Positions 2,815 to 21,329 of a DNA stretch of 32,000 nt are shown piece after piece. The notes beneath the pieces are model-generated. The model was given only the letters and a program-made list of their open reading frames with translations. It had not been told where the DNA came from and did no database searches. The position numbers and the translations under genes were made by a program. The stretch's first letter is position 1, and each line of letters begins with the position of its first letter. The DNA lies in assembly GCA_963675915.1 (NCBI GenBank), contig OY780959.1:1230001-1262000 (forward strand), written 5' to 3'. Source of the DNA: Coprobacillaceae bacterium. Its GTDB lineage: Bacteria; Bacillota_I; Bacilli_A; Erysipelotrichales; Coprobacillaceae.

Positions 2815-3462
2815 TTAGCTTGATTTTTGAATAGTTTTAGCGAAAGATTTTGCCAAAACGGGTTTTAACACTCTAAAGAAGAACCCGGTAACCAGACCTT
2901 TAAGCAGGTTGAATGGGAAGTAGATCAAAAAGATTGCTTCTCCATAAGGACCCAGGAATCCAAGGAAAGTCGAAGTCGGAAGATTCATCCCGAAGTATTC
3001 ATTGAATGCAGCCATATCCAAAGTGTATGGCAAATCAGTATACCATGTGAATTCCCATGTCAGATATGTCGGAGTTACAAACAGATAATTCAATACTGTC
3101 AGCAACAGCGAGAAGCAAACCATGGTTGCAATGATGGTTGGAATATATTTTTCGCGGAACACTTTATTGAAAAGCAGATAGAATCCCACGATTGAAAGTG
3201 AAGCCACCAATGCAGTCCATTGCCCAATTGCGAATGGTCCCACCGGTCCTTTGACTACCAATGAAATGAAGAATTTGGCGATTGAGACAATCACCCCTCC
3301 TTTAAGACCGTAAAAAAGCACTCCGACCAATACCACTACTTCGGCCAGATCAATCATCAGCCATGGCGCCAGGGGGTATGGGATCTCAATCAGCCCCAAC
3401 AAACCGCCAAGGGCACTTAACATCGCCAGTGTAACTAAAGTTCTTGTTCTAGTATTTTCCAT
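2815..3462 (-). CDS. ribU: ECF-transporter S component for riboflavin (RibU)
   Basis: Small multi-TM protein (MENTRTRTLVTLAMLSALGG...). ATG at 3462-3460 is preceded by AAGGAG. It lies directly downstream of an FMN riboswitch, which is the classical RibU context. Confidence 0.8.
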   Translation of the reverse strand: MENTRTRTLVTLAMLSALGGLLGLIEIPYPLAPWLMIDLAEVVVLVGVLFYGLKGGVIVSIAKFFISLVVKGPVGPFAIGQWTALVASLSIVGFYLLFNKVFREKYIPTIIATMVCFSLLLTVLNYLFVTPTYLTWEFTWYTDLPYTLDMAAFNEYFGMNLPTSTFLGFLGPYGEAIFLIYFPFNLLKGLVTGFFFRVLKPVLAKSFAKTIQKSS

Positions 3463-3514
3463 AATACATCTCCTTAAAATAAAAAATATCATGAAAACAC
3501 TAGTCTCCATGAAC

Positions 3515-3542
3515 GACAAAAAAGATGTATGAATATACGTCT
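3515..3542 (-). terminator. riboswitch expression-platform terminator
   Basis: Minus-strand RNA AGACGUAU-AUUC-AUACAUCU (7 of 8 pairs) followed by UUUUUU. Its 5' arm overlaps the 3' side of the aptamer P1. Confidence 0.55.
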
Positions 3543-3645
3543 ACTTCCATCCAGACTTTACTGTCGGTGTAGGAATCTAACCTACTCAGCTTGCGCTCGC
3601 GGACTATACCGCCGGTCGGGAAATTAACCCTGCCCTGAAGACTTT
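3541..3645 (-). promoter_or_regulatory. FMN riboswitch (RFN element)
   Basis: The minus-strand RNA reads GUCUUCAGGGCAGGGUUAAUUUCCCGACCGGCGGUAUAGUCCGCGAGC...GGUUAGAUUCCUACACCGACAGUAAAGUCUGGAUGGAAGUAGAC. This reproduces the conserved RFN core blocks: AGGGCAGGGU, UCCCGACCGGCGGUA, CCGCGAGC, GAUUCC, CCGACAGU, AGUCUGGAUGG. Confidence 0.9.
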
Positions 3646-3658
3646 TATTTTCGAAATC

Positions 3659-4313: not shown

Positions 4314-5986
4314 GGTAGTGTCAAACAGGTATGAAAAGTATGATTAATTTGTTATGGAGTTGTTGATGATGTAATCATTGGTCATAGCGATAATCATATT
4401 CCATTTTCTAGGCATGTTGGTCACACCTTCGAATGATTCCAGTTTAACTGGAGGACTGTATTCCAAAGAACTATGCTTCCTGAGGAAATTAAAGTATGTG
4501 GTAAACAGACACATGAATTCATTTGCTTTGTTTAAATCCGCAAATCCATTCTTTACGTAATAAGAAAACTTGAATGTTCTGTTCAATCTTTCAATTATCT
4601 GCTTTTGAGGTCGGTAAATCTTTGAAGCTTCATCCTTGTTTTCTAAACCTATTACCTGATGGACTTTGAATTTCCTGTCTTGCAATAGGAAATATTGTTG
4701 AGCGGCAAGATAGATTGGATTGCCATCAACTACAAAACTCAAGCCTTCGGGAATGGCGGTAAACTTTCTGAGTACTGAATAGTAGGCTTGGATAGCTGAA
4801 AAGGTATCTCTTTTCATAAAGATATTATATGAAGTGATTATCTTCTTGATGCTGTCACACATGAAAAAGACATAGGCTTTGTTACCGTTGATTTTAACGT
4901 AGGTTTCATCACCGCATTGATCTGGTGTCAATTCACCGTATTGGTAATTGTCTAACCAGGGGTTGATTAGACAGCTTGCCGCTTCGGCGTAATTGGCAAC
5001 GGTTTGGTGAGATACATCGACATCATGTACTTCTTTGAGAATCAATGCAGTTTTTCTTAGGGATAGTCCATAATTGATGTGATACGTGAGGATTAAACCT
5101 AGTATTTCCTTAGAATTTTTGATTCTGGATAGTTGAACTCTTGAAGGGGTAATAGTCGCCTGGAGCTGTTCTAGTTGTTCTATGGACGCACTAAAAACCC
5201 TAGTAATATAGCGAAGTTTGAAAGCGGATGGATTCTTCTTGTATAGCTTTTTCTCTTGTTTACTAAGGGAGCGGATATTGTGTTTGTAGTAGGTGCATTC
5301 CCTGTTTGAGCATCGATATACTGTGAAATGATCTCTGACATGATGAGGGTCGAGTTTCCGACCGCAGTAAGGACAGTGATGTGCAACTTGTTGGATATAA
5401 GGTTTCCCGGGAATAAAAGTTGTATCACAAACCTTGCAGCGACACTGCTGGGAGATTTTTCCGGATCTGTTGTCATAAAGATATTCGTAAGGAGCACCGC
5501 AGTGAGGGCAGACAGTATCTTTGGGTATGTTTAAAGGAACTCGTCTATTTATAGGTTTGGGCGAGCGACCGTTATGCTTTGATTTGTAGATTTCAACAGC
5601 TTTAGAGAATGTGATTGGAAGATTTTCTTCTTTGATGAGAGGAACCGGATCAACTTTGAATTTGCGGTATTGTTCGCCCATTATTAAAGTATCAGGATCT
5701 TTGGGAAGAAATTTCATCAAAAAGCATTCGAATTTGAAAGAAATTTTATTGACAATATTCAATAATTTGATAATTAGTGATATAATCTTAGCCATGGTAA
5801 TAGTTCTCCTTTACTTGTGGTTTTGTCACTTACAATTATAGGAGCTATTGCCTTTTTTGTATATTGAAATGGCTAAGTTATATGTCGATTCCGGAGGGGA
5901 GCGACTAAAATAGATAAAAAACCTAGGTAGAATGCGGTTTACCAGTTATTTAAAGCTATAAATAACTAACTGGTTTTGACACTACC
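4314..5986 (-). mobile_element. IS6/IS26-like insertion sequence, copy A (1673 bp)
   Basis: Terminal inverted repeat GGTAGTGTCAAA (perfect 12 nt, then imperfect). An 8-bp direct repeat flanks the element and it encodes a single DDE transposase gene. It differs from copy C at one base (4382 T versus 7756 C), by direct line-by-line comparison. Confidence 0.9.
4344..5795 (-). CDS. DDE transposase, IS6/IS240-like core with an N-terminal double zinc-ribbon and HTH extension
   Basis: Catalytic blocks are 'GDETYVKINGNKAYVFF', 'FVVDGNPIY' and 'IIERLNRTFK'. Two Cys clusters are present: CPHCG...CRCKVC and CPYCG...CSNREC. The HTH-like segment is 'LSLRKTALILKEV...SHQTVANY'. AAAGGAG SD lies before ATG 5795. 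Confidence 0.85.
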   Translation of the reverse strand: MAKIISLIIKLLNIVNKISFKFECFLMKFLPKDPDTLIMGEQYRKFKVDPVPLIKEENLPITFSKAVEIYKSKHNGRSPKPINRRVPLNIPKDTVCPHCGAPYEYLYDNRSGKISQQCRCKVCDTTFIPGKPYIQQVAHHCPYCGRKLDPHHVRDHFTVYRCSNRECTYYKHNIRSLSKQEKKLYKKNPSAFKLRYITRVFSASIEQLEQLQATITPSRVQLSRIKNSKEILGLILTYHINYGLSLRKTALILKEVHDVDVSHQTVANYAEAASCLINPWLDNYQYGELTPDQCGDETYVKINGNKAYVFFMCDSIKKIITSYNIFMKRDTFSAIQAYYSVLRKFTAIPEGLSFVVDGNPIYLAAQQYFLLQDRKFKVHQVIGLENKDEASKIYRPQKQIIERLNRTFKFSYYVKNGFADLNKANEFMCLFTTYFNFLRKHSSLEYSPPVKLESFEGVTNMPRKWNMIIAMTNDYIINNSITN

Positions 5987-5994
5987 AATATGAC

Positions 5995-7679
5995 GGTAGT
6001 GTCAAACGTTTATGAAAAGTATGATTAATTGATGATAGTGGTATTTGTTATGTAGTCGTTGGCCATATCAATGATCATATTCCATTTTTTAGGCATGTTG
6101 GTAACTCCTTTGAATGCTTCAAGTTCTACAGGCGGTTTGTATTTCAATGAGCTGTGATTTCTTAGAAAATTGAAGTACGTGGTAAATAGACACATGAATT
6201 CATTTGCCTTATCAAAATCTGTAAAACCATTCTTTACGTAATATGAGAACTTGAATGTTCTATTCAATCTCTCAATTATTTGCTTTTGAGATCGATACAT
6301 CTTTGAAGTTTCATCTTTGTTTTCTAAACCGATTACCTGATGAACTTTGAATCTTATTTTGTTTATATGTAAATATTGTTGGGCAGCGAGGTAGATTGGA
6401 TTGCCATCAACGACGAAATTCAAATCTTCAGGCAGGTCTTCTGGAATGACTGTAAACTTTCTGATTACTGAATAGAAAGCTTAAATTGCTGAAAATGTAT
6501 CTCTTTTCATGAAGATGTTGTAAGAGGTTATTATTTTTCTGACACTGTCACACATGAAAAAGACATAGGCTTTCTTGCCTTTGACTTTCACGTAAGTTTC
6601 ATCACCGCACTGATCTACAGTCAAATTGTCATACTGGTAGTTGTCCAACCAAGGGTTGATCAGACAACTGGCTGCTTCGGCATAGTTGGCGACAGTCTGA
6701 TGAGATACTTTGACGTCATGAACTTCTCGCATAATCAACGCGGTTTTCCTCAAAGATAAGCCGTAGTTGATGTGGTATGTGAGGATTAGGCCCAGTATGT
6801 GCTTTGAATTATGGATTCTCGACAATTGGACCTTTGAAGGGGTTATGGTTGCCTGAAGTCTTTCCAATTGTTCTATGGTAGCACTGAAAACTCTGGTTAT
6901 GTAGTGGAGTTTGAAGGCGGAAGGATTTCTCTTGTAGAGTTTCTTCTCCTTGCGGTTCATCATTCTGAGATTGTGCTTGTAGTAAGTACACATGTTGTTA
7001 GGACAACGATATACAGTGAAATGTTCACGGGTATGACGTGGATCCAGTTTTACCCCGCAATAAGGGCAGTAATGTGCCACTTGTTGGATATATGGTTTTC
7101 CAGGAACGAAGGCGGTATCGCATACTTTGCAGCGACACTGCTTTGATATTTTGCCGGACTTGTTGTCATAAAGATATTCGTAAGGAGCTCCACAGTGAGG
7201 GCAAACAGTATCTTTTGGTATGTTTAAAGGAACCCGTCTATTTATAGGTTTGGGCGAGCGACCTTTATGTTTGGATTTATATATTTCTACCGCTTCATCA
7301 AATGAAATCGGGAGATTTTCTTCTTTGATGAAAGGAACTGGATCAACCTTGAATTTGCGGTATTGTTCGCTCATGACCAATGTAGCGGGTTCCTTAGGTA
7401 GAAATTTCATTAAAAAGCATTCGGATTTGAAAGAAATTTTATTGATGATGTTCAGTAATTTGATAATTAGTGATATAATCTTAGCCATGGTAATAGTTCT
7501 CCTTTACTTTAGGTTTGGTCACTTACAATTATAGGAGCTATTACCTTTTTTGTATAATGAAAAGGCTAAGTTATATGTCAATCCCGGAGGGGAATGACTA
7601 AAATAGATAAAAAACCAAGGTAGAATGCGGTTTTCTAGTTAATTATGACTATAAATAACTAACTGGTTTTGACACTACC
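5995..7679 (-). mobile_element. diverged IS6/IS26-like insertion sequence, copy B (1685 bp)
   Basis: It has the same terminal sequences and orientation as copies A and C. Internally it is clearly diverged (roughly 80-90 % identity by eye). It carries a 12-bp in-frame imperfect duplication giving PEDLPEDL, at about 6427-6450. Confidence 0.9.
6025..7488 (-). pseudogene. transposase gene interrupted by one in-frame stop
   Basis: Where copies A and C have 'SAIQAYYSV' (CAA), copy B reads 'SAI*AFYSV' (TAA, complement of 6481-6483). This splits the gene into ORFs 6481-7488 (zinc ribbons, HTH and first catalytic D) and 6025-6423 (second D and E). Confidence 0.85.
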
Positions 7680-7687
7680 AATATGAC

Positions 7688-9360
7688 GGTAGTGTCAAAC
7701 AGGTATGAAAAGTATGATTAATTTGTTATGGAGTTGTTGATGATGTAATCATTGGCCATAGCGATAATCATATTCCATTTTCTAGGCATGTTGGTCACAC
7801 CTTCGAATGATTCCAGTTTAACTGGAGGACTGTATTCCAAAGAACTATGCTTCCTGAGGAAATTAAAGTATGTGGTAAACAGACACATGAATTCATTTGC
7901 TTTGTTTAAATCCGCAAATCCATTCTTTACGTAATAAGAAAACTTGAATGTTCTGTTCAATCTTTCAATTATCTGCTTTTGAGGTCGGTAAATCTTTGAA
8001 GCTTCATCCTTGTTTTCTAAACCTATTACCTGATGGACTTTGAATTTCCTGTCTTGCAATAGGAAATATTGTTGAGCGGCAAGATAGATTGGATTGCCAT
8101 CAACTACAAAACTCAAGCCTTCGGGAATGGCGGTAAACTTTCTGAGTACTGAATAGTAGGCTTGGATAGCTGAAAAGGTATCTCTTTTCATAAAGATATT
8201 ATATGAAGTGATTATCTTCTTGATGCTGTCACACATGAAAAAGACATAGGCTTTGTTACCGTTGATTTTAACGTAGGTTTCATCACCGCATTGATCTGGT
8301 GTCAATTCACCGTATTGGTAATTGTCTAACCAGGGGTTGATTAGACAGCTTGCCGCTTCGGCGTAATTGGCAACGGTTTGGTGAGATACATCGACATCAT
8401 GTACTTCTTTGAGAATCAATGCAGTTTTTCTTAGGGATAGTCCATAATTGATGTGATACGTGAGGATTAAACCTAGTATTTCCTTAGAATTTTTGATTCT
8501 GGATAGTTGAACTCTTGAAGGGGTAATAGTCGCCTGGAGCTGTTCTAGTTGTTCTATGGACGCACTAAAAACCCTAGTAATATAGCGAAGTTTGAAAGCG
8601 GATGGATTCTTCTTGTATAGCTTTTTCTCTTGTTTACTAAGGGAGCGGATATTGTGTTTGTAGTAGGTGCATTCCCTGTTTGAGCATCGATATACTGTGA
8701 AATGATCTCTGACATGATGAGGGTCGAGTTTCCGACCGCAGTAAGGACAGTGATGTGCAACTTGTTGGATATAAGGTTTCCCGGGAATAAAAGTTGTATC
8801 ACAAACCTTGCAGCGACACTGCTGGGAGATTTTTCCGGATCTGTTGTCATAAAGATATTCGTAAGGAGCACCGCAGTGAGGGCAGACAGTATCTTTGGGT
8901 ATGTTTAAAGGAACTCGTCTATTTATAGGTTTGGGCGAGCGACCGTTATGCTTTGATTTGTAGATTTCAACAGCTTTAGAGAATGTGATTGGAAGATTTT
9001 CTTCTTTGATGAGAGGAACCGGATCAACTTTGAATTTGCGGTATTGTTCGCCCATTATTAAAGTATCAGGATCTTTGGGAAGAAATTTCATCAAAAAGCA
9101 TTCGAATTTGAAAGAAATTTTATTGACAATATTCAATAATTTGATAATTAGTGATATAATCTTAGCCATGGTAATAGTTCTCCTTTACTTGTGGTTTTGT
9201 CACTTACAATTATAGGAGCTATTGCCTTTTTTGTATATTGAAATGGCTAAGTTATATGTCGATTCCGGAGGGGAGCGACTAAAATAGATAAAAAACCTAG
9301 GTAGAATGCGGTTTACCAGTTATTTAAAGCTATAAATAACTAACTGGTTTTGACACTACC
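7688..9360 (-). mobile_element. IS6/IS26-like insertion sequence, copy C (1673 bp)
   Basis: 1672/1673 identical to copy A, with the same IRs. It is followed by AATATGAC and then the cysE SD. Confidence 0.9.
7718..9169 (-). CDS. DDE transposase, IS6/IS240-like (copy C)
   Basis: Identical to the copy A protein except for one residue near the C-terminus (IIAMANDY versus IIAMTNDY). Confidence 0.85.
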   Translation of the reverse strand: MAKIISLIIKLLNIVNKISFKFECFLMKFLPKDPDTLIMGEQYRKFKVDPVPLIKEENLPITFSKAVEIYKSKHNGRSPKPINRRVPLNIPKDTVCPHCGAPYEYLYDNRSGKISQQCRCKVCDTTFIPGKPYIQQVAHHCPYCGRKLDPHHVRDHFTVYRCSNRECTYYKHNIRSLSKQEKKLYKKNPSAFKLRYITRVFSASIEQLEQLQATITPSRVQLSRIKNSKEILGLILTYHINYGLSLRKTALILKEVHDVDVSHQTVANYAEAASCLINPWLDNYQYGELTPDQCGDETYVKINGNKAYVFFMCDSIKKIITSYNIFMKRDTFSAIQAYYSVLRKFTAIPEGLSFVVDGNPIYLAAQQYFLLQDRKFKVHQVIGLENKDEASKIYRPQKQIIERLNRTFKFSYYVKNGFADLNKANEFMCLFTTYFNFLRKHSSLEYSPPVKLESFEGVTNMPRKWNMIIAMANDYIINNSITN

Positions 9361-13224: not shown

Positions 13225-13263
13225 TACTAGTGTGTAACATATTTATTTTAATTCACACTAGTA
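13225..13263. repeat. perfect 10-bp inverted repeat in the long AT-rich intergenic region
   Basis: TACTAGTGTG (13225-13234) and CACACTAGTA (13254-13263) separated by 19 nt. The left arm overlaps one of two TTATTTTACTA direct repeats (13219-13229 and 13324-13334). Confidence 0.6.
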
Positions 13264-13544
13264 TACTTTAATACGTTCATTTATTGCGCATTAGTTTCTT
13301 AAATAGAGAGCTCAGACGTAGCTTTATTTTACTAACGAAGGTATTATTGCGGTAATTCTTACAAGTGTATTATTACTCGTTTTGCGAAATAAACAAATTA
13401 ATTTAGGATATATCAAACACTTTTAAGACAATAATCGAAAATTTTAGCCTTTATGCCACAAAATCGCATTTTTTATCGATTATTTTTTAAAATTATTAGA
13501 AATATTCTAAAATTAGTGGTAAAATGACGTTGGGGGATTGTAAC

Positions 13545-14105
13545 ATGATTTATTATTTGATAACAATTGGAGTATTTTTGTTGTATATCATCTACGATAT
13601 CAACTCATTAACTATAAATAGTAAAATATTAAACAAGCTGTTTATCATCGGGACGCTGATCTTCACCACTGAAAATCTGTTCCTGATCAGCCAGATAATA
13701 AATGATGTTGAAATCAACTTCACAACCATTTATTTACTCACGTGTGCACTTATATTTTTTGTGCTCTTGATATATACCTTGTTCTTTTCCTTGCCATTTA
13801 AGGACACCTACATTGACCAGAATCAAGCCAATAAGGTGATTCGAACCGGAATGTACGGACTTTCACGACATATCGGGGTACTTTGGTTTATCCTGATGTA
13901 CGCCTGCCTGGCTCTGGCATTAACCAATTATACATTTACCATTTTCGCAATTATCGCCTGTTTGATGAATCTGATCTACATTGTCTTCCAAGACAACTAC
14001 ACTTTTATCAGACTGTTCGATGATTACGAAGATTACAAAAACGAGGTATCGTTTCTGATACCAAGCCCCGAAGCTATTAAGCGGATAATTTCTAGAAGGA
14101 GATAG
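13545..14105 (+). CDS. integral membrane protein of the ICMT/PEMT-like methyltransferase family (divergent)
   Basis: Has about 5 hydrophobic helices. The C-terminal half carries 'VIRTGMYGLSRHIGVLWF' and a terminal 'FDDYEDYKNEVSFLIP'. These parallel the family pattern 'L.T.G.Y...RHP.Y.G' and 'FG..Y..Y...V...IP'. Here RHP is replaced by RHI. ATG 13545 lies 7 nt after GGGGGA; the track start at 13524 lacks an SD. Confidence 0.6.
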   Translation: MIYYLITIGVFLLYIIYDINSLTINSKILNKLFIIGTLIFTTENLFLISQIINDVEINFTTIYLLTCALIFFVLLIYTLFFSLPFKDTYIDQNQANKVIRTGMYGLSRHIGVLWFILMYACLALALTNYTFTIFAIIACLMNLIYIVFQDNYTFIRLFDDYEDYKNEVSFLIPSPEAIKRIISRRR

Positions 14106-14110
14106 TTACT

Positions 14111-15724
14111 ATGAGTTTCAAAGACGATTACAAATCTAAAACTAAAAAGCAAATCTGGGATGAATACTGCAGTTTTGTGGATTTATCGATAGATGAATTT
14201 ATGGCTATTCAAAATCGTCTGATGAAAGAACAGCTCGATTTATGGCAAAAATCACCTTTGGGCCAATCGCTCCTCAAAAAGAATTTTGCAACTATCGAAG
14301 ACTTCCGACATGAATTCCCATTGACCGACTATCAGGACTACGCTGATATTCTCCTGCTCAAAAAAGATGAAATGTTGCCAGCCAAAGCAGTGATTTGGAT
14401 CAAAACCACCTGGGAAGGTGGCAAACATCCCATCAAGCTGGCACCTTACAGTTCTGAAATGATCGAATCATTCCGGGACAATACCATGGCTTGTGTCATT
14501 ATGGCCTCATCCAAAGAAAAGTACCGTTTCACCGTTGAAAACAACGACACTTTCCTTTACGGTCTGGCGCCATTGCCTTTTGCAACCGGACTGTTGCCTC
14601 GGGCGTTGGCAATGCATACCGATATCGAGTTCTTGCCCAATGTCGAAGATGCCGAAAGCATGAGTTTCTCCGAGCGGAACAAACTGGGATTCAAAATGGG
14701 AATGGAAAAAGGAATCGACTACTTTTTCGGGCTGGCTTCGGTGGCCTACTATATTTCAAAAAGCTTCTCATCAATGGCATCTGGCGGTTCTTCAGGATCA
14801 TCAAGCCGGAAATTGTCGCTAAAAACCATCTTCAAATACATCCGTTCACGCAGCATTTCCAAAAAAGAAAACCGCGATATCATGCCTAAGGACTTCTTCA
14901 AGATGAAGGGTTATATGATTACCGGGGCGGACAGCGACTGCTACAAGGATGAACTGACTGAAATGTGGGGCATCGAACCGCTGGAACTTTTCGCCGGGAC
15001 CGAACCTTCACTGATCGGAGCCGAAGATTTCAACCGCAACGGGATGTATTTCTTCCCCGATGTCTGCTTCTTTGAATTCATCAAGGAATCCGATATGTAC
15101 AAATTGGTTGACAATCCTGAATTGAATCCGAAAACCTATCTCTTCAATGAACTTGAAGTCGGTGCAGTATACGAACTGGTAATCTCGGTTCTTCGCGGCG
15201 GAGCTTTCATGCGCTACCGCATCAAAGATGTTTACCGAGTTGTCGGTAAGAACGAAAAAGGCTTGCCAAGATTCAAATTCGTGGACCGGGCACCTGATGT
15301 AATCGATATTGCCGGCTTCACCAGAATCACCCAGGAACTGATTGAAAGAGTCATCAAATTATCAAACCTTGATATCAGCAACTATACAATCACCAAGGAA
15401 TATAATGAAGAAAACAAACCGCTTCTTCATATGTACGTCGAACTCGACCAGAATACCCTGATCGAATCGGCTTACCTTAAAGATATCCTGGAAAGTCAAT
15501 TGGGGATCTATTTTAGATATATCGATTCCGATTACGTAGCTTTAAAACAAATATTAGGAATGAATCCACTTAAAATTACGATTTTGCGTTGCGGCACCTT
15601 TGCCAAGTACGAAAGTGTCTATGGAACCAAGATGAGATCTTTCAACCCGTCTAAACACTCAGTAAAAGATCTTGTTGACATCCAGCAACGAGTCGGCGAG
15701 TACACGGGGGTCAAATATGATTGA
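14111..15724 (+). CDS. GH3-family (acyl-acid amido synthetase-like, ANL superfamily) protein
   Basis: GH3-type blocks are 'FPLTDYQDY', 'FAGTEPSLIG', 'FFPDVCFFEFI', 'VGAVYELVISVLRGGAFMRYRIKDVYRVVG' and 'LPRFKFVDRAPDVIDIAG'. GGAG SD lies inside the end of the upstream gene, with a 5-nt gap. Confidence 0.7.
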   Translation: MSFKDDYKSKTKKQIWDEYCSFVDLSIDEFMAIQNRLMKEQLDLWQKSPLGQSLLKKNFATIEDFRHEFPLTDYQDYADILLLKKDEMLPAKAVIWIKTTWEGGKHPIKLAPYSSEMIESFRDNTMACVIMASSKEKYRFTVENNDTFLYGLAPLPFATGLLPRALAMHTDIEFLPNVEDAESMSFSERNKLGFKMGMEKGIDYFFGLASVAYYISKSFSSMASGGSSGSSSRKLSLKTIFKYIRSRSISKKENRDIMPKDFFKMKGYMITGADSDCYKDELTEMWGIEPLELFAGTEPSLIGAEDFNRNGMYFFPDVCFFEFIKESDMYKLVDNPELNPKTYLFNELEVGAVYELVISVLRGGAFMRYRIKDVYRVVGKNEKGLPRFKFVDRAPDVIDIAGFTRITQELIERVIKLSNLDISNYTITKEYNEENKPLLHMYVELDQNTLIESAYLKDILESQLGIYFRYIDSDYVALKQILGMNPLKITILRCGTFAKYESVYGTKMRSFNPSKHSVKDLVDIQQRVGEYTGVKYD

Positions 15725-18254
15725 GTATACTTTCATACCTCTGATAGCGACTGCCTGTTATAGTTTTCTGCTGCTGGCCTTTTTGGCAGCCAAGAAAAAT
15801 CCAATCGTGAATTCATTCATTCTGATGCTTATCATCTTTACCCTTTGGTCCGGCGGTTCTTTGTTGATGCGGATCCAGTTTCTCGATGCGACCAAAATCT
15901 GGTATGATCTGTCGCTGGCTGGAATAATTTTAGCCCCGTATGCGGTTTTATCTTATGTCAAGAACACTGGCCAACTGAAAAGAAATCTGATCGACTATGT
16001 CCTTCTGGGCTTCAGTATTGTGACTATAGTCATCAATACCATCTGGGAAATATTCCTGGAAGCTCCGGAAATGATCGTCAATGAGATCGGTCAGACAATC
16101 TTCGTTTATCACGCCTCGTGGACAGCAGTATTCCTGTTTGTCTTCCCGGCCCTGTTTGTCATTTATACTTTGGTGATCCTCTTTGGACTGTCAAAGCGCA
16201 ACCACATTCAGGAAAGTGTGTTCAACCCGATCAAGATTGGCTTGCTGGTGCTGTTTATCGGAAATATTCTGACGGTACTTCCATTTATCAATGGGATGCC
16301 AACCGACATCATTTCCAGTGTAATCTTCGTCTTTATCTTATTTTATACTTTATATCGTAAAAAACTGTTCCGCCTTGATCTGTTGATCTCAAAATGGGTG
16401 GTTTATGGAATTTCCGGATTGACTTCAGTAGCAATCCTGATGAACAGTGTCAAATTCATCGAAATAACCCTGAAATCCAATTTCAACGTTTCTGATGAAC
16501 ATATCATCATGTTCGTCGCAATGATTTTCACGCTGTTGGCCTTTGTATTCTACCGCTTGATGGAAATATTCATCGATCGAATCTACATCTCGGATGAATC
16601 AACCAGAAATTCAATCCTCAAAGATTTCAAATCCAATGTTCTTAGCACGCTTGAAGTCAAGGACATTTCCCGGCTGATAGTTCATATCGTCAAGGACACC
16701 CTTGATGTTCAGGAAATATACGTAATGCTTCCTGATGAAGCCGATAAGATTTACCGGGTTGCCAGCACCTCGAATCCGTTGAACAATATCGATTTCAAAC
16801 TCGAATACAACAATCCGCTGGTAACTCTGCTTTCAAACCGCAACGACAGCCTGCTTGCGAGCGAATTTCGAAATCTCAATGCCTACAAGTCATTGTGGAT
16901 CGAAGAAAAAAAGGAAATCGTCTATCTGGGTATCGAATGTCTGGTCCCGTTAGTCGATAACAACAAGCTGGTCGGAATCCTCATGCTTACCAACAAGAAC
17001 AAGAACGGTCGTTTCACTGAGGATGACCTGACTTTCCTGGAGAGTATCAATATCATCGCTTCAACCGCCCTTTCCAAAGCCCAACTTTACGAAACGGTTT
17101 ATAACGAAGCCAGAAAAGATGACCTGACCAAACTTCTGAATCGGAAATATTTCCTTTCGAGCCTCAACGAGCTCGAAGCCAAACGCCGTGACGGTCTTAT
17201 TTCAATCGCGATTTTCAATATCGACGATTTCAAACTTTACAATCAGCTTTACGGATACAGTGCCGGTGATTCGGTCTTGATCGAAACCGCCCGGATTATC
17301 GAAGCCACTATGGAAGGCATCGGATTAGCGGCCAGATACGATTCCAAGGTATTCGCCTGTGTCTTCCCGAACTATGATGTCAACCAGACCAAACTGGTAA
17401 CTGAAAAAATAGTCAGACAAATCAACGAAATCAATTCCAAACGGAAAAACTACAAAATGAAACGGATCACCGTTAGTTGCGGGATCTCGACTATTCCGTT
17501 TTTGGCCAATAACGTCACCGAATTGATCAATGATGCCGAGCTGGCAATCTATCATGTCAAACGGAACGGTAAAAACAATATCCGGATCTCAACCGGTCAA
17601 ATTGTCAAACGGAACGATGACTACGAAGAAGTCGAACATAAATCGGAAGTCTATTCCGAATATGCCGCAGCTATCTATGCTCTGACAGCTGCAATCGACA
17701 CCAAAGACCACTACACCTTCTCGCATTCAAACAATGTAGCCTATTATGCTACCGAGTTGGCCTTCGGTCTCAATATGGACAAAGATTCAATCGAAATCAT
17801 CAAAGAAGCAGCCCTGCTTCACGATATCGGTAAAATCGGTATTGATGAAAACATCCTCAACAAAAAAGGTCGTCTGACCGACCATGAGCGGGAAATCATG
17901 AATACCCATGTTGAAAATTCAGTCAGCATCATCAAACATATTCCATCGCTTACCTACGTCATTCCAGCCGTTATCGGTCACCATGAACGTTACGATGGTA
18001 ATGGTTATCCCCGCGGGGTGCGTGGCAACGACATTCCTTTGTTCGCAAGAATTCTCTGTATTGCCGACAGTTTCGATGCTATGCTCTCAAAAAGAGCCTA
18101 CAAAGATACCCGCAGTATTGAATTTGCTTTGATGGAAGTCGGAAAATGTGCCGGGACCCAATTCGATCCCGATTTGGCCGCTATCTTCATTGAATTGGTC
18201 AAATCAGGAAAAATCGTACCGATTGTAAACAAACCTGACGAAAATTATCTTTAA
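15717..18254 (+). CDS. membrane sensor: multi-TM N-domain, GAF, degenerate GGDEF, HD-GYP c-di-GMP phosphodiesterase
   Basis: ATG 15717 overlaps the GH3 stop (ATGATTGA). About 8-10 TM helices span to roughly 16600. The GAF-like block is '...IYVMLPDEADKIYRVAS...LVPLVDNNKLVGILML'. The GGDEF fold has 'DDLTKLLNRKYF' but 'RYDSKVF' in place of R-GGDEF (17340-17354). The HD-GYP motifs 'LLHDIGK' and 'HHERYDGNGYP' (17979-18011) are intact. Confidence 0.85.
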   Translation: MIEYTFIPLIATACYSFLLLAFLAAKKNPIVNSFILMLIIFTLWSGGSLLMRIQFLDATKIWYDLSLAGIILAPYAVLSYVKNTGQLKRNLIDYVLLGFSIVTIVINTIWEIFLEAPEMIVNEIGQTIFVYHASWTAVFLFVFPALFVIYTLVILFGLSKRNHIQESVFNPIKIGLLVLFIGNILTVLPFINGMPTDIISSVIFVFILFYTLYRKKLFRLDLLISKWVVYGISGLTSVAILMNSVKFIEITLKSNFNVSDEHIIMFVAMIFTLLAFVFYRLMEIFIDRIYISDESTRNSILKDFKSNVLSTLEVKDISRLIVHIVKDTLDVQEIYVMLPDEADKIYRVASTSNPLNNIDFKLEYNNPLVTLLSNRNDSLLASEFRNLNAYKSLWIEEKKEIVYLGIECLVPLVDNNKLVGILMLTNKNKNGRFTEDDLTFLESINIIASTALSKAQLYETVYNEARKDDLTKLLNRKYFLSSLNELEAKRRDGLISIAIFNIDDFKLYNQLYGYSAGDSVLIETARIIEATMEGIGLAARYDSKVFACVFPNYDVNQTKLVTEKIVRQINEINSKRKNYKMKRITVSCGISTIPFLANNVTELINDAELAIYHVKRNGKNNIRISTGQIVKRNDDYEEVEHKSEVYSEYAAAIYALTAAIDTKDHYTFSHSNNVAYYATELAFGLNMDKDSIEIIKEAALLHDIGKIGIDENILNKKGRLTDHEREIMNTHVENSVSIIKHIPSLTYVIPAVIGHHERYDGNGYPRGVRGNDIPLFARILCIADSFDAMLSKRAYKDTRSIEFALMEVGKCAGTQFDPDLAAIFIELVKSGKIVPIVNKPDENYL

Positions 18255-18262
18255 TTAAAATT

Positions 18263-18305
18263 AAAATGCACCGTAATCAAAACTCTTGATTATGGTGCAT
18301 TTTTG
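18263..18305. terminator. bidirectional terminator between the two convergent c-di-GMP operons
   Basis: 15-bp stem ATGCACCGTAATCAA / TTGATTATGGTGCAT (one G-U pair) with a 5-nt loop. An A-run lies before it and TTTT after it. Confidence 0.85.
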
Positions 18306-18309
18306 AATA

Positions 18310-20325
18310 TTATAGAATTTTTAGCACTTCATCCTGACTCACCGGTTTGGAAAGGAAGTAACCCTGAACATAATTGCAATTGAGCTTTTCAAGCAATTGA
18401 TACTGGCTTCGAGCTTCGACTCCCTCGGCGACAGTGGCAATCCCCAGTGATTTCGCCAAGGAAATCAGATGGTGCACTACCAGCATGTCGTTTTGCTTCC
18501 TAGTGATATTGTCGATATAGGACTTGTCGATTTTCAAACGGTCGAACGGGAAATTGATCAGATAATTGAATGATGAGTATTTGGTTCCAAAATCATCAAG
18601 CGCCACATGGAACCCCATATCTTTGAGAGATTTGATCAGCTTGAGACTGTTGTCGAGATTGTTGATCAAAGAATGTTCGGTCAATTCGAATTCAATCAAT
18701 CTAGGCTCGATGTGATATTTTTCAATGCATCTAACCAGAAAGTCAGTCGTCTTGGGCGATTCTACTGTTTGGGCCGAGATATTGATCGACAGGGTGATCT
18801 GACGTCCTCTTAAATTTTTCTGGAAAAAGTCAAAGGCATTCTCAATAACCCAGCGGTCAATTTCCAGTATCTGACCGGTTTCCTCGGCCACAGAAATCAA
18901 CTGTCCGGTATTGAACTGATAAGAATCACCCGACCAGCGCAACAACACTTCAACTCCAGCGACACTCTTGGAGTCAAGTTTGTAGATTGGTTGATAATTG
19001 AGCATGAAGCAGTTATTTTCAAGCATCTCCCGGATCGAACTTTCGATCAAGAGCTTTGTTTCGATCTCTTTTTGAAACCGGGATTGATATCTGGTCGCCC
19101 GATTTTTACCTTTACACTTGGATTCATGCAAAGCCAGGTCGATATTCTTGATCAGCTCTACCGGGACGTTGCCATGCAAGGGATGTTCAACCACCCCGAT
19201 GCTAGCTGAAGGATGATAGGTAAAGCCTTTTTTGTACCACGGGGTTTTCGCCATTTTCAACAGTTGGTCAGCCCGTTTTTGCCAGACCCCTGGTCGCACA
19301 TCAAAATCAAGAATCATGAACTCATCACCGCCCCAGCGGTAGACGCGACAGTCAGGGAAGTTGTTTTTCAGAGTTGATGCAAAATGCCTGATAAACATGT
19401 TCCCGGCATCGTGGCCATGGATGTCGTTAAGGTGCCGAAAATTATCAAGATCCAGAAAGAATAAATTGAATTCCCGTTTGGCCGCGATCAACGAATCGAC
19501 ATCCCGTTGGAACACAATCAGGTTATCGAGTTTGGTCAGTTGATCCTGATAGGCCAACTCGGTGATTTTCTTTTCTTTAAGCTTTTCACTGGTCATATCA
19601 ACCCCAAAGCAGATCACCGACATTTCGTCGAGATTGGGATTTTTTGCCACGGTACAATTCCATAGCATATAGATTTCCCGATTCTCTTTGGTGGACATCT
19701 TCAGTTCAATATTTCGCAGACTTTTCAAACTCTTGACCTGAGCATGAAGAAAACTGATATGATCGCCATCGGCTTCAAGAAACAGTTTCTGGTAACATTC
19801 ACTGTCCCTGAGCTCTTCAGCCTGAAAACCGAACATATCCCGAAAATAGTTGTTGACTTCGATAATCTCACCTTCCATATTCCAGATAATGATTGCCGTG
19901 GTGGAATTGTTGAAGATTTCATTGGAAAACTGCTTTTGGAGCAGCAGTTCGTTCATGGCATCGTTTAGATGTGCTACCTTGTCTTTGAGTTCGTTTTTGG
20001 TCGTTTCCAGACTTAATGTATTTTCCCTCAAAGTCCGATTGTTATTTGAAAGATCCTGGGACAAGTCGACAATCTTGGAATAATCATAGCGAATCACAAA
20101 AAACAAGAGTACGGCTGTAGCCAGGACATAGAAGGTTCCCTTGTATGATTGAAACAGCATGTAGCTCTCGTAATCACTGACGATAAAGGCCAGAACCTGA
20201 TCGGAGAAAAGAACCCATAAATAACCGACAAGCACATAGACAAAAATCGGTTTCCAGGGGTTTTTACTGCGACTAAACTCAACTTTACCACTCTTTTCAT
20301 GGTCAATTTCTCTTTTTTGTTCCAT
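18310..20325 (-). CDS. membrane-anchored PAS-GGDEF-EAL protein
   Basis: Has two N-terminal TM helices and a coiled-coil segment. The PAS-like block is 'TTAIIIWNMEGEIIEVNNYFRDMFGF' and the GGDEF motif is 'RWGGDEF'. The EAL domain carries 'EVLLRW', 'ELTEH', 'LDDFGT', 'LKIDKSYI', 'VAEGVE' and 'QGYFLSKP'. Confidence 0.9.
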   Translation of the reverse strand: MEQKREIDHEKSGKVEFSRSKNPWKPIFVYVLVGYLWVLFSDQVLAFIVSDYESYMLFQSYKGTFYVLATAVLLFFVIRYDYSKIVDLSQDLSNNNRTLRENTLSLETTKNELKDKVAHLNDAMNELLLQKQFSNEIFNNSTTAIIIWNMEGEIIEVNNYFRDMFGFQAEELRDSECYQKLFLEADGDHISFLHAQVKSLKSLRNIELKMSTKENREIYMLWNCTVAKNPNLDEMSVICFGVDMTSEKLKEKKITELAYQDQLTKLDNLIVFQRDVDSLIAAKREFNLFFLDLDNFRHLNDIHGHDAGNMFIRHFASTLKNNFPDCRVYRWGGDEFMILDFDVRPGVWQKRADQLLKMAKTPWYKKGFTYHPSASIGVVEHPLHGNVPVELIKNIDLALHESKCKGKNRATRYQSRFQKEIETKLLIESSIREMLENNCFMLNYQPIYKLDSKSVAGVEVLLRWSGDSYQFNTGQLISVAEETGQILEIDRWVIENAFDFFQKNLRGRQITLSINISAQTVESPKTTDFLVRCIEKYHIEPRLIEFELTEHSLINNLDNSLKLIKSLKDMGFHVALDDFGTKYSSFNYLINFPFDRLKIDKSYIDNITRKQNDMLVVHHLISLAKSLGIATVAEGVEARSQYQLLEKLNCNYVQGYFLSKPVSQDEVLKIL

Positions 20326-20342: not shown

Positions 20343-21227
20343 TTATTTCATCACAGTCCGGTTGCGGCCGCTGGTCTTGGCCTGATAAAGACAGGCGTCG
20401 ACCGGATCGATGATGGTGTTGAAATCATATTCAGTTTCGCTGACTTGGGCCACACCAAAACTGCAGGTAACCCTGAACGTCTCATCCTTGTAGTTGAAGA
20501 CATGATTTTCAATCTTGACCCGGATTTTTTCAATCACTTGATAAGCTTTTTCACTGGTGGTGTCATTCAGGACAATCACAAATTCCTCGCCCCCAAAGCG
20601 GGCCACCCAGTCAGTAGATGAGCGGACTGATCCTTTGATGATCTTGGCCACTTCAATCAGGACATGGTCTCCTGTGGTATGGCCATATGTGTCATTGATT
20701 TTTTTGAACAAGTCGATATCAGCCATCGCGATGGTGACCTGAGTGCCCTTGGCTAGGGCCTTTTTTTGATCCCCGGGCAGGCGTTCATCAATATAGCGGC
20801 GATTGTATACCTGAGTCAGTTCATCAACAACCAGCTGATTGTTGAGCCGTTTGACAAATTCCTGGAGACTTACATCGACATCCCGGTCTTTCAAAACAAT
20901 CTGGTCGCGTTCGACTTCCTGAATCATCTCCACTATATGGCGATTACCGTTGAAAACAACCGGCAGAGCCTGAATGAGATAGATATTGTTATCCTTGATT
21001 TCGATTTTATGAGCCGGTTTGTGGGAATTGAGCACCCGCATTGAGACACAATTTTCACAAGGTCTGCCATTTCCCCAAAAACGGTGACAATGAGCTGTGA
21101 ATTCCGGCCTTTCTGGCTGTTCCAGACCGGTTTGCGTTTTGTCAACGGGATCGACAATCCGGATATAATCATAAATCCCCGGGAAAATCGCCAATCTCTG
21201 TTTAATTTCTTCTAAAATATCATTCAT
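20343..21227 (-). CDS. diguanylate cyclase (GGEEF) with a Cys/His-rich N-terminal domain
   Basis: Contains 'DELTQVYNRRY', 'DIDLFKKINDTYGHTTGD' and 'RFGGEEF'. The N-terminal 120 aa carries 'HCHRFWGNGRPCENC'. ATG 21227 is preferred (GGTGG SD 7 nt upstream) over the TTG at 21245. There are 17 nt to the downstream PAS-GGDEF-EAL gene. Confidence 0.85.
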   Translation of the reverse strand: MNDILEEIKQRLAIFPGIYDYIRIVDPVDKTQTGLEQPERPEFTAHCHRFWGNGRPCENCVSMRVLNSHKPAHKIEIKDNNIYLIQALPVVFNGNRHIVEMIQEVERDQIVLKDRDVDVSLQEFVKRLNNQLVVDELTQVYNRRYIDERLPGDQKKALAKGTQVTIAMADIDLFKKINDTYGHTTGDHVLIEVAKIIKGSVRSSTDWVARFGGEEFVIVLNDTTSEKAYQVIEKIRVKIENHVFNYKDETFRVTCSFGVAQVSETEYDFNTIIDPVDACLYQAKTSGRNRTVMK

Positions 21228-21329
21228 AATCTGCCACCAAATCAACCCGAGTAAACTCGCAATTTAACAAAAAGAAAACCATCAAACCCTTTGGATTTCG
21301 CAAAATGGGTTTCATGTGTATCTTAACTG

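Follow-up and report, generated by a model that had tools for sequence, protein, structure and literature searches.

A conserved gene trio joins GH3-like and ICMT-like proteins to a seven-transmembrane HD-GYP sensor in anaerobic Firmicutes

In the literature searched, OlsH of Singulisphaera acidiphila is the only biochemically characterised bacterial GH3-like enzyme; it forms N-acyl-ornithine from a free fatty acid in an ATP-dependent reaction, and its gene lies in an operon with that of a methyltransferase (PMC12493201). Here we describe three adjacent genes, g1, g2 and g3, that place a GH3-like enzyme and a putative membrane methyltransferase beside a polytopic sensor. They lie in a 32,000-nucleotide stretch of the genome of Coprobacillaceae bacterium (NCBI GenBank assembly GCA_963675915.1, contig OY780959.1, positions 1,230,001 to 1,262,000 of the forward strand), hereafter the window, from the first letter of which all positions are counted. 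The g1 protein resembles the isoprenylcysteine carboxyl methyltransferase (ICMT) and phospholipid methyltransferase (PEMT) families, the g2 protein resembles the GH3 acyl-acid amido synthetases, and the g3 protein carries a seven-transmembrane (7TM) sensor domain, a GAF domain, a degenerate GGDEF domain and an HD-GYP domain predicted to hydrolyse cyclic di-GMP (c-di-GMP).

The trio is inherited together across Clostridia and Erysipelotrichia, its first two genes are in some sequences fused into one, and relatives of this pair keep the same 7TM(-GAF) input as partner when the output of the sensor changes. We read the locus as one transcription unit that unites a ligand-making enzyme pair with a dedicated membrane receptor, and give this reading a little less than an even chance. 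Its chemistry, from the substrate to the product, and the direction in which information flows we infer.

Closest described systems

The Ols operon is like the g1–g2 pair in that a GH3-like, ATP-dependent enzyme is co-operonic with a methyltransferase that uses S-adenosylmethionine (SAM) and modifies its product. The two differ in several respects. The g2 profile hidden Markov model (HMM) finds no OlsH-like protein, and hhalign relates the two only in the C-terminal half (84 %, E 8e-6). The Ols methyltransferase is a soluble class I Rossmann protein (Methyltransf_25), whereas g1 encodes an ICMT/PEMT-type membrane protein; an OlsI-type α/β-hydrolase is encoded in the Ols operon and none accompanies the trio; and g3 has no counterpart in the Ols operon, which lacks any gene for a sensor or for c-di-GMP. 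Because it lacks the hydrolase, has another methyltransferase fold and contains a g2 related to OlsH at the hhalign level only, we rejected the trio as an Ols operon, and we rejected g1 as an OlsG homologue because the methyltransferase beside OlsH-like genes is of the class I Rossmann type. Metagenome loci of OlsH-like genes, retrieved by motif pattern, encode Abhydrolase_1, then Methyltransf_25, then GH3 (N-terminal domain 105 bits). This order of α/β-hydrolase, class I methyltransferase and GH3, seen at L093, L111, L118, L128 and other loci with the OlsH motif (P-loop TSGTTQGATK), confirms the published olsI-olsG-olsH arrangement in uncultured relatives.

Plant GH3 enzymes (JAR1, GH3.5, GH3.6 and PBS3) share with g2 the two-domain adenylating fold and the conserved motifs II and III, and the logic is alike: a signal is tuned through amidation or methyl-esterification of a carboxylate. 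They differ from g2 in sequence (13–17 % identity), and the N-terminal domain of g2 is barely recognisable (21.9 bits) and its P-loop atypical. The carboxyl methyltransferases of plants are of the soluble SABATH type, unlike the ICMT-like membrane protein g1, and in plants GH3 enzymes occur without operon or receptor coupling. A preliminary description of the locus, made from the letters alone, had drawn a parallel to plant hormone chemistry; that parallel is an analogy only. The closest characterised bacterial GH3-like enzyme, OlsH, makes the lipid N-acyl-ornithine (PMC12493201).

Like ICMT/PEMT enzymes, the g1 protein is small and polytopic, and its gene adjoins that of the presumed maker of a lipid-like substrate. 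BpsB and SrsB are bacterial ICMT-like lipid O-methyltransferases. In the Rpf/DSF (diffusible signal factor) system of Xanthomonas, RpfF is a crotonase-type synthase, RpfB a fatty-acyl ligase, RpfC a membrane sensor and hybrid kinase, and RpfG a REC-HD-GYP protein. Among the systems compared, this is the one that the trio would most resemble in function: a self-made signal of fatty-acid type, an ANL ligase, a membrane sensor, HD-GYP hydrolysis and clustered genes. The resemblance is functional only. The Rpf receptor is a kinase with a REC-HD-GYP regulator, whereas g3 encodes a one-component 7TM-GAF-GGDEF-HD-GYP protein with a degenerate GGDEF; the enzymes of the trio are GH3-like and ICMT-like and belong to Gram-positive anaerobes, and none of the defining Rpf proteins is shared. 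Neither the operon nor its recurrent neighbours include a crotonase or REC-HD-GYP gene.

For the MASE9-, MASE10- and MASE12-HD-GYP proteins, intramembrane ligand binding is suspected (Galperin & Chou, bioRxiv 10.1101/2021.11.05.467447). Like g3, these proteins join HD-GYP to a polytopic sensor domain that has conserved polar residues within the bilayer or close to it. The same census of HD-GYP proteins mentions neither GH3 nor HisKA_7TM, the Pfam domain of the g3 N terminus, and reports no dedicated enzyme partners (bioRxiv 10.1101/2021.11.05.467447); unlike the sensors listed there, g3 has partner genes that suggest a source of ligand. Literature that names HisKA_7TM lists it as a sensor domain only, without a ligand, and no description of GH3 or ICMT linked to HD-GYP or c-di-GMP was found in the literature searched, which does not cover most subscription journals. 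A GH3-like and ICMT-like pair tied to a HisKA_7TM receptor with interchangeable outputs thus appears to be a conserved module that is undescribed, although its parts are known.

Conservation of the trio

A scan of GTDB with one genome per species gave at least 595 genomes with a g2 relative, of which the best 80 were examined. In all 80 species-representative genomes g1, g2 and g3 adjoin in the same order on one strand, in agreement with their treatment as a unit in the preliminary description. These genomes span Lachnospiraceae, Oscillospiraceae, Anaerovoracaceae, Christensenellaceae, Peptococcaceae, Eubacteriaceae and Erysipelotrichales, and the same trio was found at five further loci, including metagenome sequence, by exact look-up of proteins from g2 or g1 relatives. 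Over the 85 loci, the median spacing is +2 nt between g1 and g2 and −1 nt between g2 and g3; overlaps of 4, 8 and 11 nt are frequent, and those of 4 or 8 nt are the most common at the g2–g3 junction. The pairwise identities of the three proteins co-vary (r = 0.75–0.86).

The flanks of the trio vary among lineages. When all flanking open reading frames (ORFs) at 81 loci were clustered, no fourth gene was found to recur beside the trio: one cluster, present in 56 of the 81, consists of shadow ORFs antisense to g2 and g3, and the next, in 17, is a generic ABC ATPase. The trio is also present, with g2 identities of 51–53 %, in two metagenome-assembled genomes (MAGs) labelled Fusobacteria (L035) and Candidatus Acidoferrum (L083), which could reflect mis-binning or rare lateral transfer.

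Fusions and exchanged partners

An exhaustive search of 1.84 billion cluster representatives with the g2 profile yielded 1351 relatives at E <= 1e-3, and 248 at E <= 1e-30. Overlong matches to the profile include three natural g1–g2 fusion polypeptides (P0251, P0252 and P0267). In P0267 the g1 part clears the Pfam PEMT threshold (31.7 bits against 25) and the P-loop, TSGKTG, is nearer to the canonical form.

The partners of these relatives are informative. At locus L129, a g1–g2 fusion overlaps by 4 nt the gene for a 984-amino-acid hybrid histidine kinase (HisKA-HATPase-REC), the N terminus of which is homologous to the 7TM domain of g3 (hhalign 99.9 %, E 2.4e-37), including the motifs WTxGSxxMR and FPxDxLSG. 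At L133, a g2 relative is followed by a 7TM-GAF-PAS-HisKA-HATPase-REC protein, and L134 has three neighbouring genes in differing orientations: one g1-like, one a g2 relative and one for a 7TM-GAF-GGDEF-HD-GYP protein. As both HD-GYP and hybrid-kinase outputs are seen, the link of the pair is to the 7TM(-GAF) input module and not to the output. The evidence for exchange of the output comes from the exhaustive g2 search; a word-indexed search with the 7TM profile returned three proteins only and was uninformative. The fusions, and their occurrence in contexts both with and without a sensor, make the g1–g2 pair a self-contained unit.

Two loci carry a distant PEMT and GH3 fusion (with the TSGKTG P-loop) that is translationally coupled to a B12-binding radical-SAM enzyme (L130, 5001–8710; L131, 153–3862). 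This arrangement suggests that a related pathway to a small molecule or lipid exists in which the radical-SAM enzyme adds a further step, for example C-methylation.

Operon anatomy

The three genes are packed on one strand of the window (Table 1). The TAG stop of g1 (14103–14105) is separated by the 5-nt gap TTACT (14106–14110) from the ATG of g2 at 14111, and the TGA stop of g2 (15722–15724) lies beyond the ATG of g3 at 15717, with the 8-nt overlap ATGATTGA (15717–15724) common to both genes. These coordinates, and the Shine–Dalgarno sequence inside the end of g1, match the preliminary description exactly. Its start codons are also right, as homologues open with MIYY.. (g1) and MIEY.. (g3); upstream alternatives are ATG 13524 for g1 and TTG 15672 for g3, the former of which was rejected because it falls inside the conserved extended −10 box and homologues begin at MIYY...

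A promoter scan placed a candidate sigma-70-type promoter, with TG ahead of the −10 element, so close to g1 that the resulting leader would be only ~15 nt. In an alignment with two relatives (L001 and L006), its −35/TG/−10 block is the best-conserved part upstream of g1, and the remainder of the 571-bp gap is unconserved. A riboswitch or structured leader in the gap was considered and rejected, as Rfam gave no match at gathering level and only chance-level matches at E <= 5; the conserved element of the gap is the candidate promoter near g1. Within the gap between g1 and the divergent GH1 gene there is a perfect 10-nt inverted repeat, TACTAGTGTG (13225–13234) and CACACTAGTA (13254–13263), the arms of which are 19 nt apart. 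This possible operator shows no conservation in L001 or L006.

Downstream, the terminator hairpin folds as RNA with −23.2 kcal/mol (z = −7.9), a stability reached by none of 200 shuffled sequences, and serves both g3 and a convergent PAS-GGDEF-EAL gene. With near-zero spacing, internal Shine–Dalgarno sequences, one promoter and one terminator, the trio therefore looks like a single, translationally coupled transcription unit.

Table 1. Positions of the trio, its expression signals and the domains of g3 in the window
Feature	Position	Strand	Description
g1	13545–14105	+	ORF of 186 amino acids
g2	14111–15724	+	ORF of 537 amino acids
g3	15717–18254	+	ORF of 845 amino acids
Candidate sigma-70-type promoter	13497–13525	+	−35 TAGAAA 13497–13502; 17-nt spacer; extended −10 TGgTAAAAT 13517–13525
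Shine–Dalgarno of g1	13532–13537	+	GGGGGA, 7 nt from the start codon; invariant in the alignment with L001 and L006
Shine–Dalgarno of g2	14097–14101	+	AGGAG, within the last codons of g1; read from the sequence
g2/g3 junction	15706–15724	+	GGGGG 15706–15710 as Shine–Dalgarno of g3, 6 nt ahead of ATGATTGA
g3 HisKA_7TM (PF16927) sensor domain	15717–16616 (residues ~1–300)	+	Pfam 35 bits, cut-off 28.6
g3 GAF domain	16650–17075 (residues 312–453)	+	Pfam GAF 27.9, GAF_2 26.1, GAF_3 21.9 bits
g3 degenerate GGDEF domain	17115–17579 (residues 467–621)	+	Pfam GGDEF 104 bits
g3 HD-GYP domain	17691–18176 (residues 659–820)	+	HD_5 122.5 bits (cut-off 27.2), HD 70.7 bits
Bidirectional intrinsic terminator	18263–18303	.	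18-bp perfect hairpin with an A-run and a U-run either side

The three protein families

By HMM and fold searches, g1 and g2 fall into the superfamilies that the preliminary description had named, ICMT/PEMT for g1 and GH3 for g2. For g1, membership is visible at the level of family and fold, not from the single sequence. The g1 of the window has no Pfam match and reaches 18.2 bits (E 0.0017) against the NCBIfam model isopcys_mtase, with a cut-off of 160. Of 40 members of its family, 20 match PEMT (best 1e-6) and 15 match ICMT (E <= 1), and several are named Ste14 by JGI. The g1 profile did not find ICMT among PDB sequences, where its one match was short and weak, so a fold search was needed instead. 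The AlphaFold2 model (predicted local distance difference test (pLDDT) 88.8) is all-helical, and hydropathy agrees with a polytopic membrane protein. Its top PDB match in Foldseek is the ICMT Ma-ICMT (4a2n), with probability 1.0 and a root-mean-square deviation of 2.3 Å over the C-terminal 80 columns and a weak E value (0.076); the next matches are the steroid 5-alpha-reductase SRD5A2, a sterol reductase and the eukaryotic ICMT 5v7p, all of one superfamily.

Conserved residues fall in the same region. R108, H109, Q149, D150, F154, F158, Y161, Y164 and P173 are kept in at least 97 % of orthologues, and the family consensus reads G.YALCRHPGVLWF ... QD.WTFP.TF.DY..YKK.TPFLIP (also given as ...CRHPGVLWF...QD.WTFP...); the window g1 carries RHI and QDNYTF at this block. 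The ICMT signature is RHPxY..G and EE..L...FG..Y..Y...V...IP. The g1 family preserves the register of Y..Y...V...IP, with QD in place of EE, and its RH...QD..F...F..Y..Y...P block sits in the part that superposes on the cofactor domain of Ma-ICMT. The three N-terminal helices are family-specific, with an LLIYTLFFxLPF motif, D18 (consensus YDINS) kept in at least 97 % of 82 orthologues and N20 in at least 90 % of the 40 aligned family members. Sequence family and model together support g1 as a divergent member of the ICMT/PEMT superfamily and make it a putative SAM-dependent membrane methyltransferase for a lipid-like substrate. The weak PDB match of the g1 profile is between residues 1–28 (13545–13628; consensus FLLYxIYDINS) and the last helix of Bacillus subtilis YetJ (E 0.016). 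YetJ is a TMBIM/BI-1 family protein, and the match may be a chance likeness of membrane helices.

For g2, Pfam matches to GH3_M (50.4 bits) and GH3_C (23.8 bits) exceed the cut-off of 23.6, and the GH3 N-terminal domain (21.9 bits) falls just under it. A profile of 30 family members matched only plant GH3 structures in the PDB (best 4b2g, E 1e-9), in their central and C-terminal parts only. The AlphaFold2 model (pLDDT 82) has the two-domain ANL adenylating fold and is nearest by template-modelling (TM) score to plant GH3 enzymes (Foldseek TM 0.61–0.63, E 1e-17 to 1e-18, ~590 columns); the PaaK-like ligase BT_0428 has a better E value (1.5e-20) and a lower TM score (0.55). The GH3-like assignment holds, most clearly in the fold, and judged by sequence and model g2 is a soluble, deeply divergent GH3-like adenylate-forming enzyme of the ANL superfamily and a putative acyl-acid amido synthetase.

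With a mean identity of 64 %, g2 is the most conserved of the trio, and 144 of its 537 residues are kept in at least 97 % of 80 orthologues. The reference nucleotide-binding motifs of GH3 enzymes are SSGTSxGxxK, YxSSE and YRxGD (PMC12493201). In the g2 family, FAGTEP (motif II) does not vary and GGAFxRYRxGD (motif III) hardly does; motif I has the atypical form WxxTTWEGGxxPxK, which is itself nearly invariant, T100 and G103 varying in one or two of the 80. The lysine at the C-terminal QxKxPR position of OlsH-like proteins is K or R in ~64 of the 80. Because TTWEGG departs from the SSGTS/TSGTT P-loop and the QxKxPR lysine varies, adenylation by g2 is not certain. One g2 relative (P0249, 727 amino acids) has an internal duplication of ~190 residues, with IRPLKVAPYTQ...KMWGIRP present twice, which is a genuine tandem duplication or else an artefact of assembly.

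The domain order of g3 agrees with the polytopic sensor with GAF, inactive GGDEF and intact HD-GYP of the preliminary description, as judged from Pfam and motifs. Hydropathy gives at least seven hydrophobic segments at the N terminus. Invariant polar and aromatic residues of the 7TM domain are W44, G47, S48, M51, R52, W62, S66, N107, P195 and D197, and R52, D197 and other conserved polar residues are located in the hydrophobic segments or close to them. At the active site of GGDEF, the g3 of the window has RYDSKVF where the family has RYSGKEF, and lysine replaces the catalytic Asp/Glu in all 71 orthologues; with this invariant substitution and no RxxD I-site, the domain is a conserved non-cyclase. 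The HD and HHERYDGNGYP motifs of the HD-GYP domain are intact in the window, and H702, D703, H755, H756, E757, G761, G763, Y764, P765 and D784 are invariant in the 71 orthologues. Given the invariance of HD, HHExxDGxGYP and the downstream Asp, g3 is predicted to be a c-di-GMP phosphodiesterase. Membership of a defence system was considered and rejected: the PADLOC models gave no match to g1 or g2, and for g3 only a generic HD likeness to Cas3 (E ~2e-4).

Proposed function and alternatives

In the function that we propose, g2 would consume ATP to activate a hydrophobic carboxylic acid as its adenylate; a fatty acid or another acid of lipid type is the most plausible candidate. On the cytoplasmic side of the membrane, g2 would couple this acid to an amine, which is probably an amino acid. 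The SAM-dependent g1 would then methylate this amphiphilic product in the inner leaflet. The first of these steps is modelled on OlsH, and the second is proposed because an N-acyl amino acid with a free alpha-carboxylate resembles a minimal ICMT substrate. The methylated, neutral lipid would remain in the membrane, where the 7TM domain of g3 may bind it within the bilayer and signal through the GAF domain and the catalytically dead GGDEF to the HD-GYP phosphodiesterase and the level of c-di-GMP. The net effect would be that the supply of acid, amine, ATP and SAM, or an exchanged lipid signal, is read out as a change in c-di-GMP.

Several observations suit active enzymes: g2 is the most conserved protein and keeps motifs I–III, g1 keeps its conserved block and the HD-GYP motifs are invariant. 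The preliminary description had suggested that the pair makes or modifies a membrane-associated carboxylate signal that the sensor reads. The ligand–receptor part of this is strengthened by the g1–g2 fusions and by the lineages in which the same 7TM module has a histidine-kinase output; the chemistry we can only infer. In its boldest form, the proposal would make the product a new class of membrane signal (an N-acyl amino acid that carries a methyl group, or a comparable lipo-amide) and HisKA_7TM its intramembrane receptor, in autocrine or quorum-type signalling of anaerobic Firmicutes that feeds c-di-GMP or a phosphorelay. This form we consider unlikely.

A number of points weigh against a ligand-making pair with a dedicated receptor. 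Some concern the enzymes: the g1 of the window is below every curated HMM threshold, QD stands for the acidic EE pair of the ICMT signature and the g1 fold also serves NADPH-dependent reductases, and motif I (TTWEGG) and the variable QxKxPR lysine weaken the predicted adenylation competence of g2. Others concern the partnership. The fusion at L132 stands alone, and those at L130 and L131 precede the B12-binding radical-SAM enzyme, in each case without a sensor; g1 was not found on the 6.3-kb contig of L133. The pair without a sensor may mean that its product serves independently, for example as a membrane lipid or metabolite, and synteny cannot separate sensing of the product from sensing of the substrate or of the enzymes themselves.

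The alternative that survives best, which we nonetheless hold to be improbable, is a membrane-lipid pathway with a feedback sensor, in which the pair would make a bulk structural amino-lipid, much as methylated ornithine lipid is built by OlsH and OlsG, and g3 would monitor the state or composition of the membrane generally, not a dedicated signal molecule. The sole characterised bacterial GH3-like enzyme found does build a membrane lipid, co-operonic with a methyltransferase, the pair can stand alone (L132), and g1 would be an integral membrane enzyme of a lipid-modifying superfamily. Yet g2 is only remotely related to OlsH and the methyltransferase beside OlsH-like genes is unrelated to g1, as described above; neither an OlsI-like O-acyltransferase nor another lipid-assembly gene recurs beside the trio at the 81 loci, and a strict pairing with one particular 7TM domain is what one would sooner expect of a ligand and its receptor than of general membrane sensing.

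Processing of an acid from outside the cell is rather less probable. Here an exogenous acid (a dietary or host fatty acid, an aromatic or a bile-type acid) would be conjugated and methylated, and g3 would sense it or its conjugate and switch lifestyle by way of c-di-GMP, for environmental sensing or detoxification and not for self-signalling. No transporter or efflux gene is conserved near the trio (81 loci), and the sequences point to no particular acid, although OlsH takes free fatty acids rather than acyl-ACP (acyl carrier protein) and plant GH3 enzymes inactivate or activate pre-existing acids. Habitat bears on the question in both directions: many hosts are anaerobes of gut, rumen and digester that are exposed to free fatty and aromatic acids, but the trio also occurs in non-host habitats, in Sinanaerobacter, Parasporobacterium, Anaerotalea and MAGs from groundwater and sediment.

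We are more doubtful that the receptor itself is the substrate, with g2 adenylating or amidating, and g1 methyl-esterifying, a carboxylate on g3 to tune its sensitivity in the manner of CheR/CheB. Strict 1:1:1 co-inheritance and translational coupling would fit such a scheme, as would an enzyme link that tracks the 7TM-GAF input through a change of output and a co-variation (r = 0.75–0.86) that would suit physical contact; the natural substrates of ICMT are, moreover, proteins, which it methylates at the C terminus. Against this, the pairs without a sensor argue, as g1–g2 fusions occur with no receptor (L132) or beside B12/radical-SAM enzymes (L130/L131). A GH3 or ICMT-like enzyme that modifies a polytopic receptor is not known, and all characterised GH3 enzymes, bacterial OlsH included, act on small acids (PMC12493201).

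Least probable is a non-catalytic co-receptor, in which g2 would have lost adenylation to become a cytoplasmic ligand-binding subunit and g1 would anchor or scaffold g3, for although motif I is TTWEGG instead of SSGTS/TSGTT (the distant, fused P0267 retaining TSGKTG), the GH3 N-terminal domain is under the Pfam threshold and g1 has QD where ICMT has an acidic pair, the conservation of the motifs speaks against a pseudoenzyme: even the atypical motif I hardly varies, motifs II and III retain AMP/ATP-binding residues, the 144 g2 residues kept in at least 97 % of ~80 species include the expected active-site ones, and the pair persists without any receptor (L132).

Composition and neighbouring genes

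The preliminary description had taken the block to be more AT-rich than its neighbours and compatible with acquisition as a unit. This does not hold: the GC content of the operon block is 0.422 against 0.424 for the window, GC at third codon positions (GC3) is 0.50–0.53, equal to that of neighbouring genes, and the AT-rich parts are limited to the 571-bp gap (GC 0.285) and g1 (0.36). A Coprobacillaceae relative with 73 % g2 identity keeps the flanks (GH1 upstream, PAS-GGDEF-EAL and GGDEF downstream), and no g2 relatives were found on plasmids. We rejected horizontal acquisition of the operon on these grounds, and there is no sign of a recent one.

Downstream, a PAS-GGDEF-EAL gene (18310–20325, − strand) and a stand-alone GGDEF cyclase gene (20343–21245, − strand) converge on g3, making three c-di-GMP genes in a row. 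The same row is present in the Coprobacillaceae MAG L001/L007 (73 % g2 identity) and not in other lineages.

Farther upstream are two 483-amino-acid ORFs with an rve_3 integrase core (4344–5795 and 7718–9169, both − strand), equal in length and in GC (0.377), and what is apparently a split third copy (6025–6423 and 6481–7488, − strand). They look like a row of insertion-sequence copies, which would account for the low GC at ~5000–9000, ~4 kb upstream of the operon. An FMN (flavin mononucleotide) riboswitch (3535–3646, − strand; 104 bits) lies upstream of the gene for an ECF-transporter S component (2815–3519, − strand), presumably a riboflavin transporter.

Significance

Most c-di-GMP enzymes and histidine kinases with membrane-embedded sensors are orphans as to ligand. 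The receptor g3 arrives with two co-inherited and sometimes fused enzymes that point to the source of its ligand, and discovery of a ligand for HisKA_7TM becomes tractable by experiment. Carriers of the trio include common Lachnospiraceae of the human gut (Coprococcus comes, Enterocloster, Faecalicatena and Blautia). Any product of the pair is a candidate microbiome metabolite, and N-acyl amides are known as ligands of host receptors.

If the boldest form of the proposal is true, the locus would provide the first ligand for the widespread HisKA_7TM domain and the first signalling role of a bacterial GH3 enzyme. The proposed function would extend the bacterial GH3 enzymes beyond the synthesis of ornithine lipids and give Gram-positive bacteria a counterpart to the DSF/Rpf pathway from lipid signal to HD-GYP.

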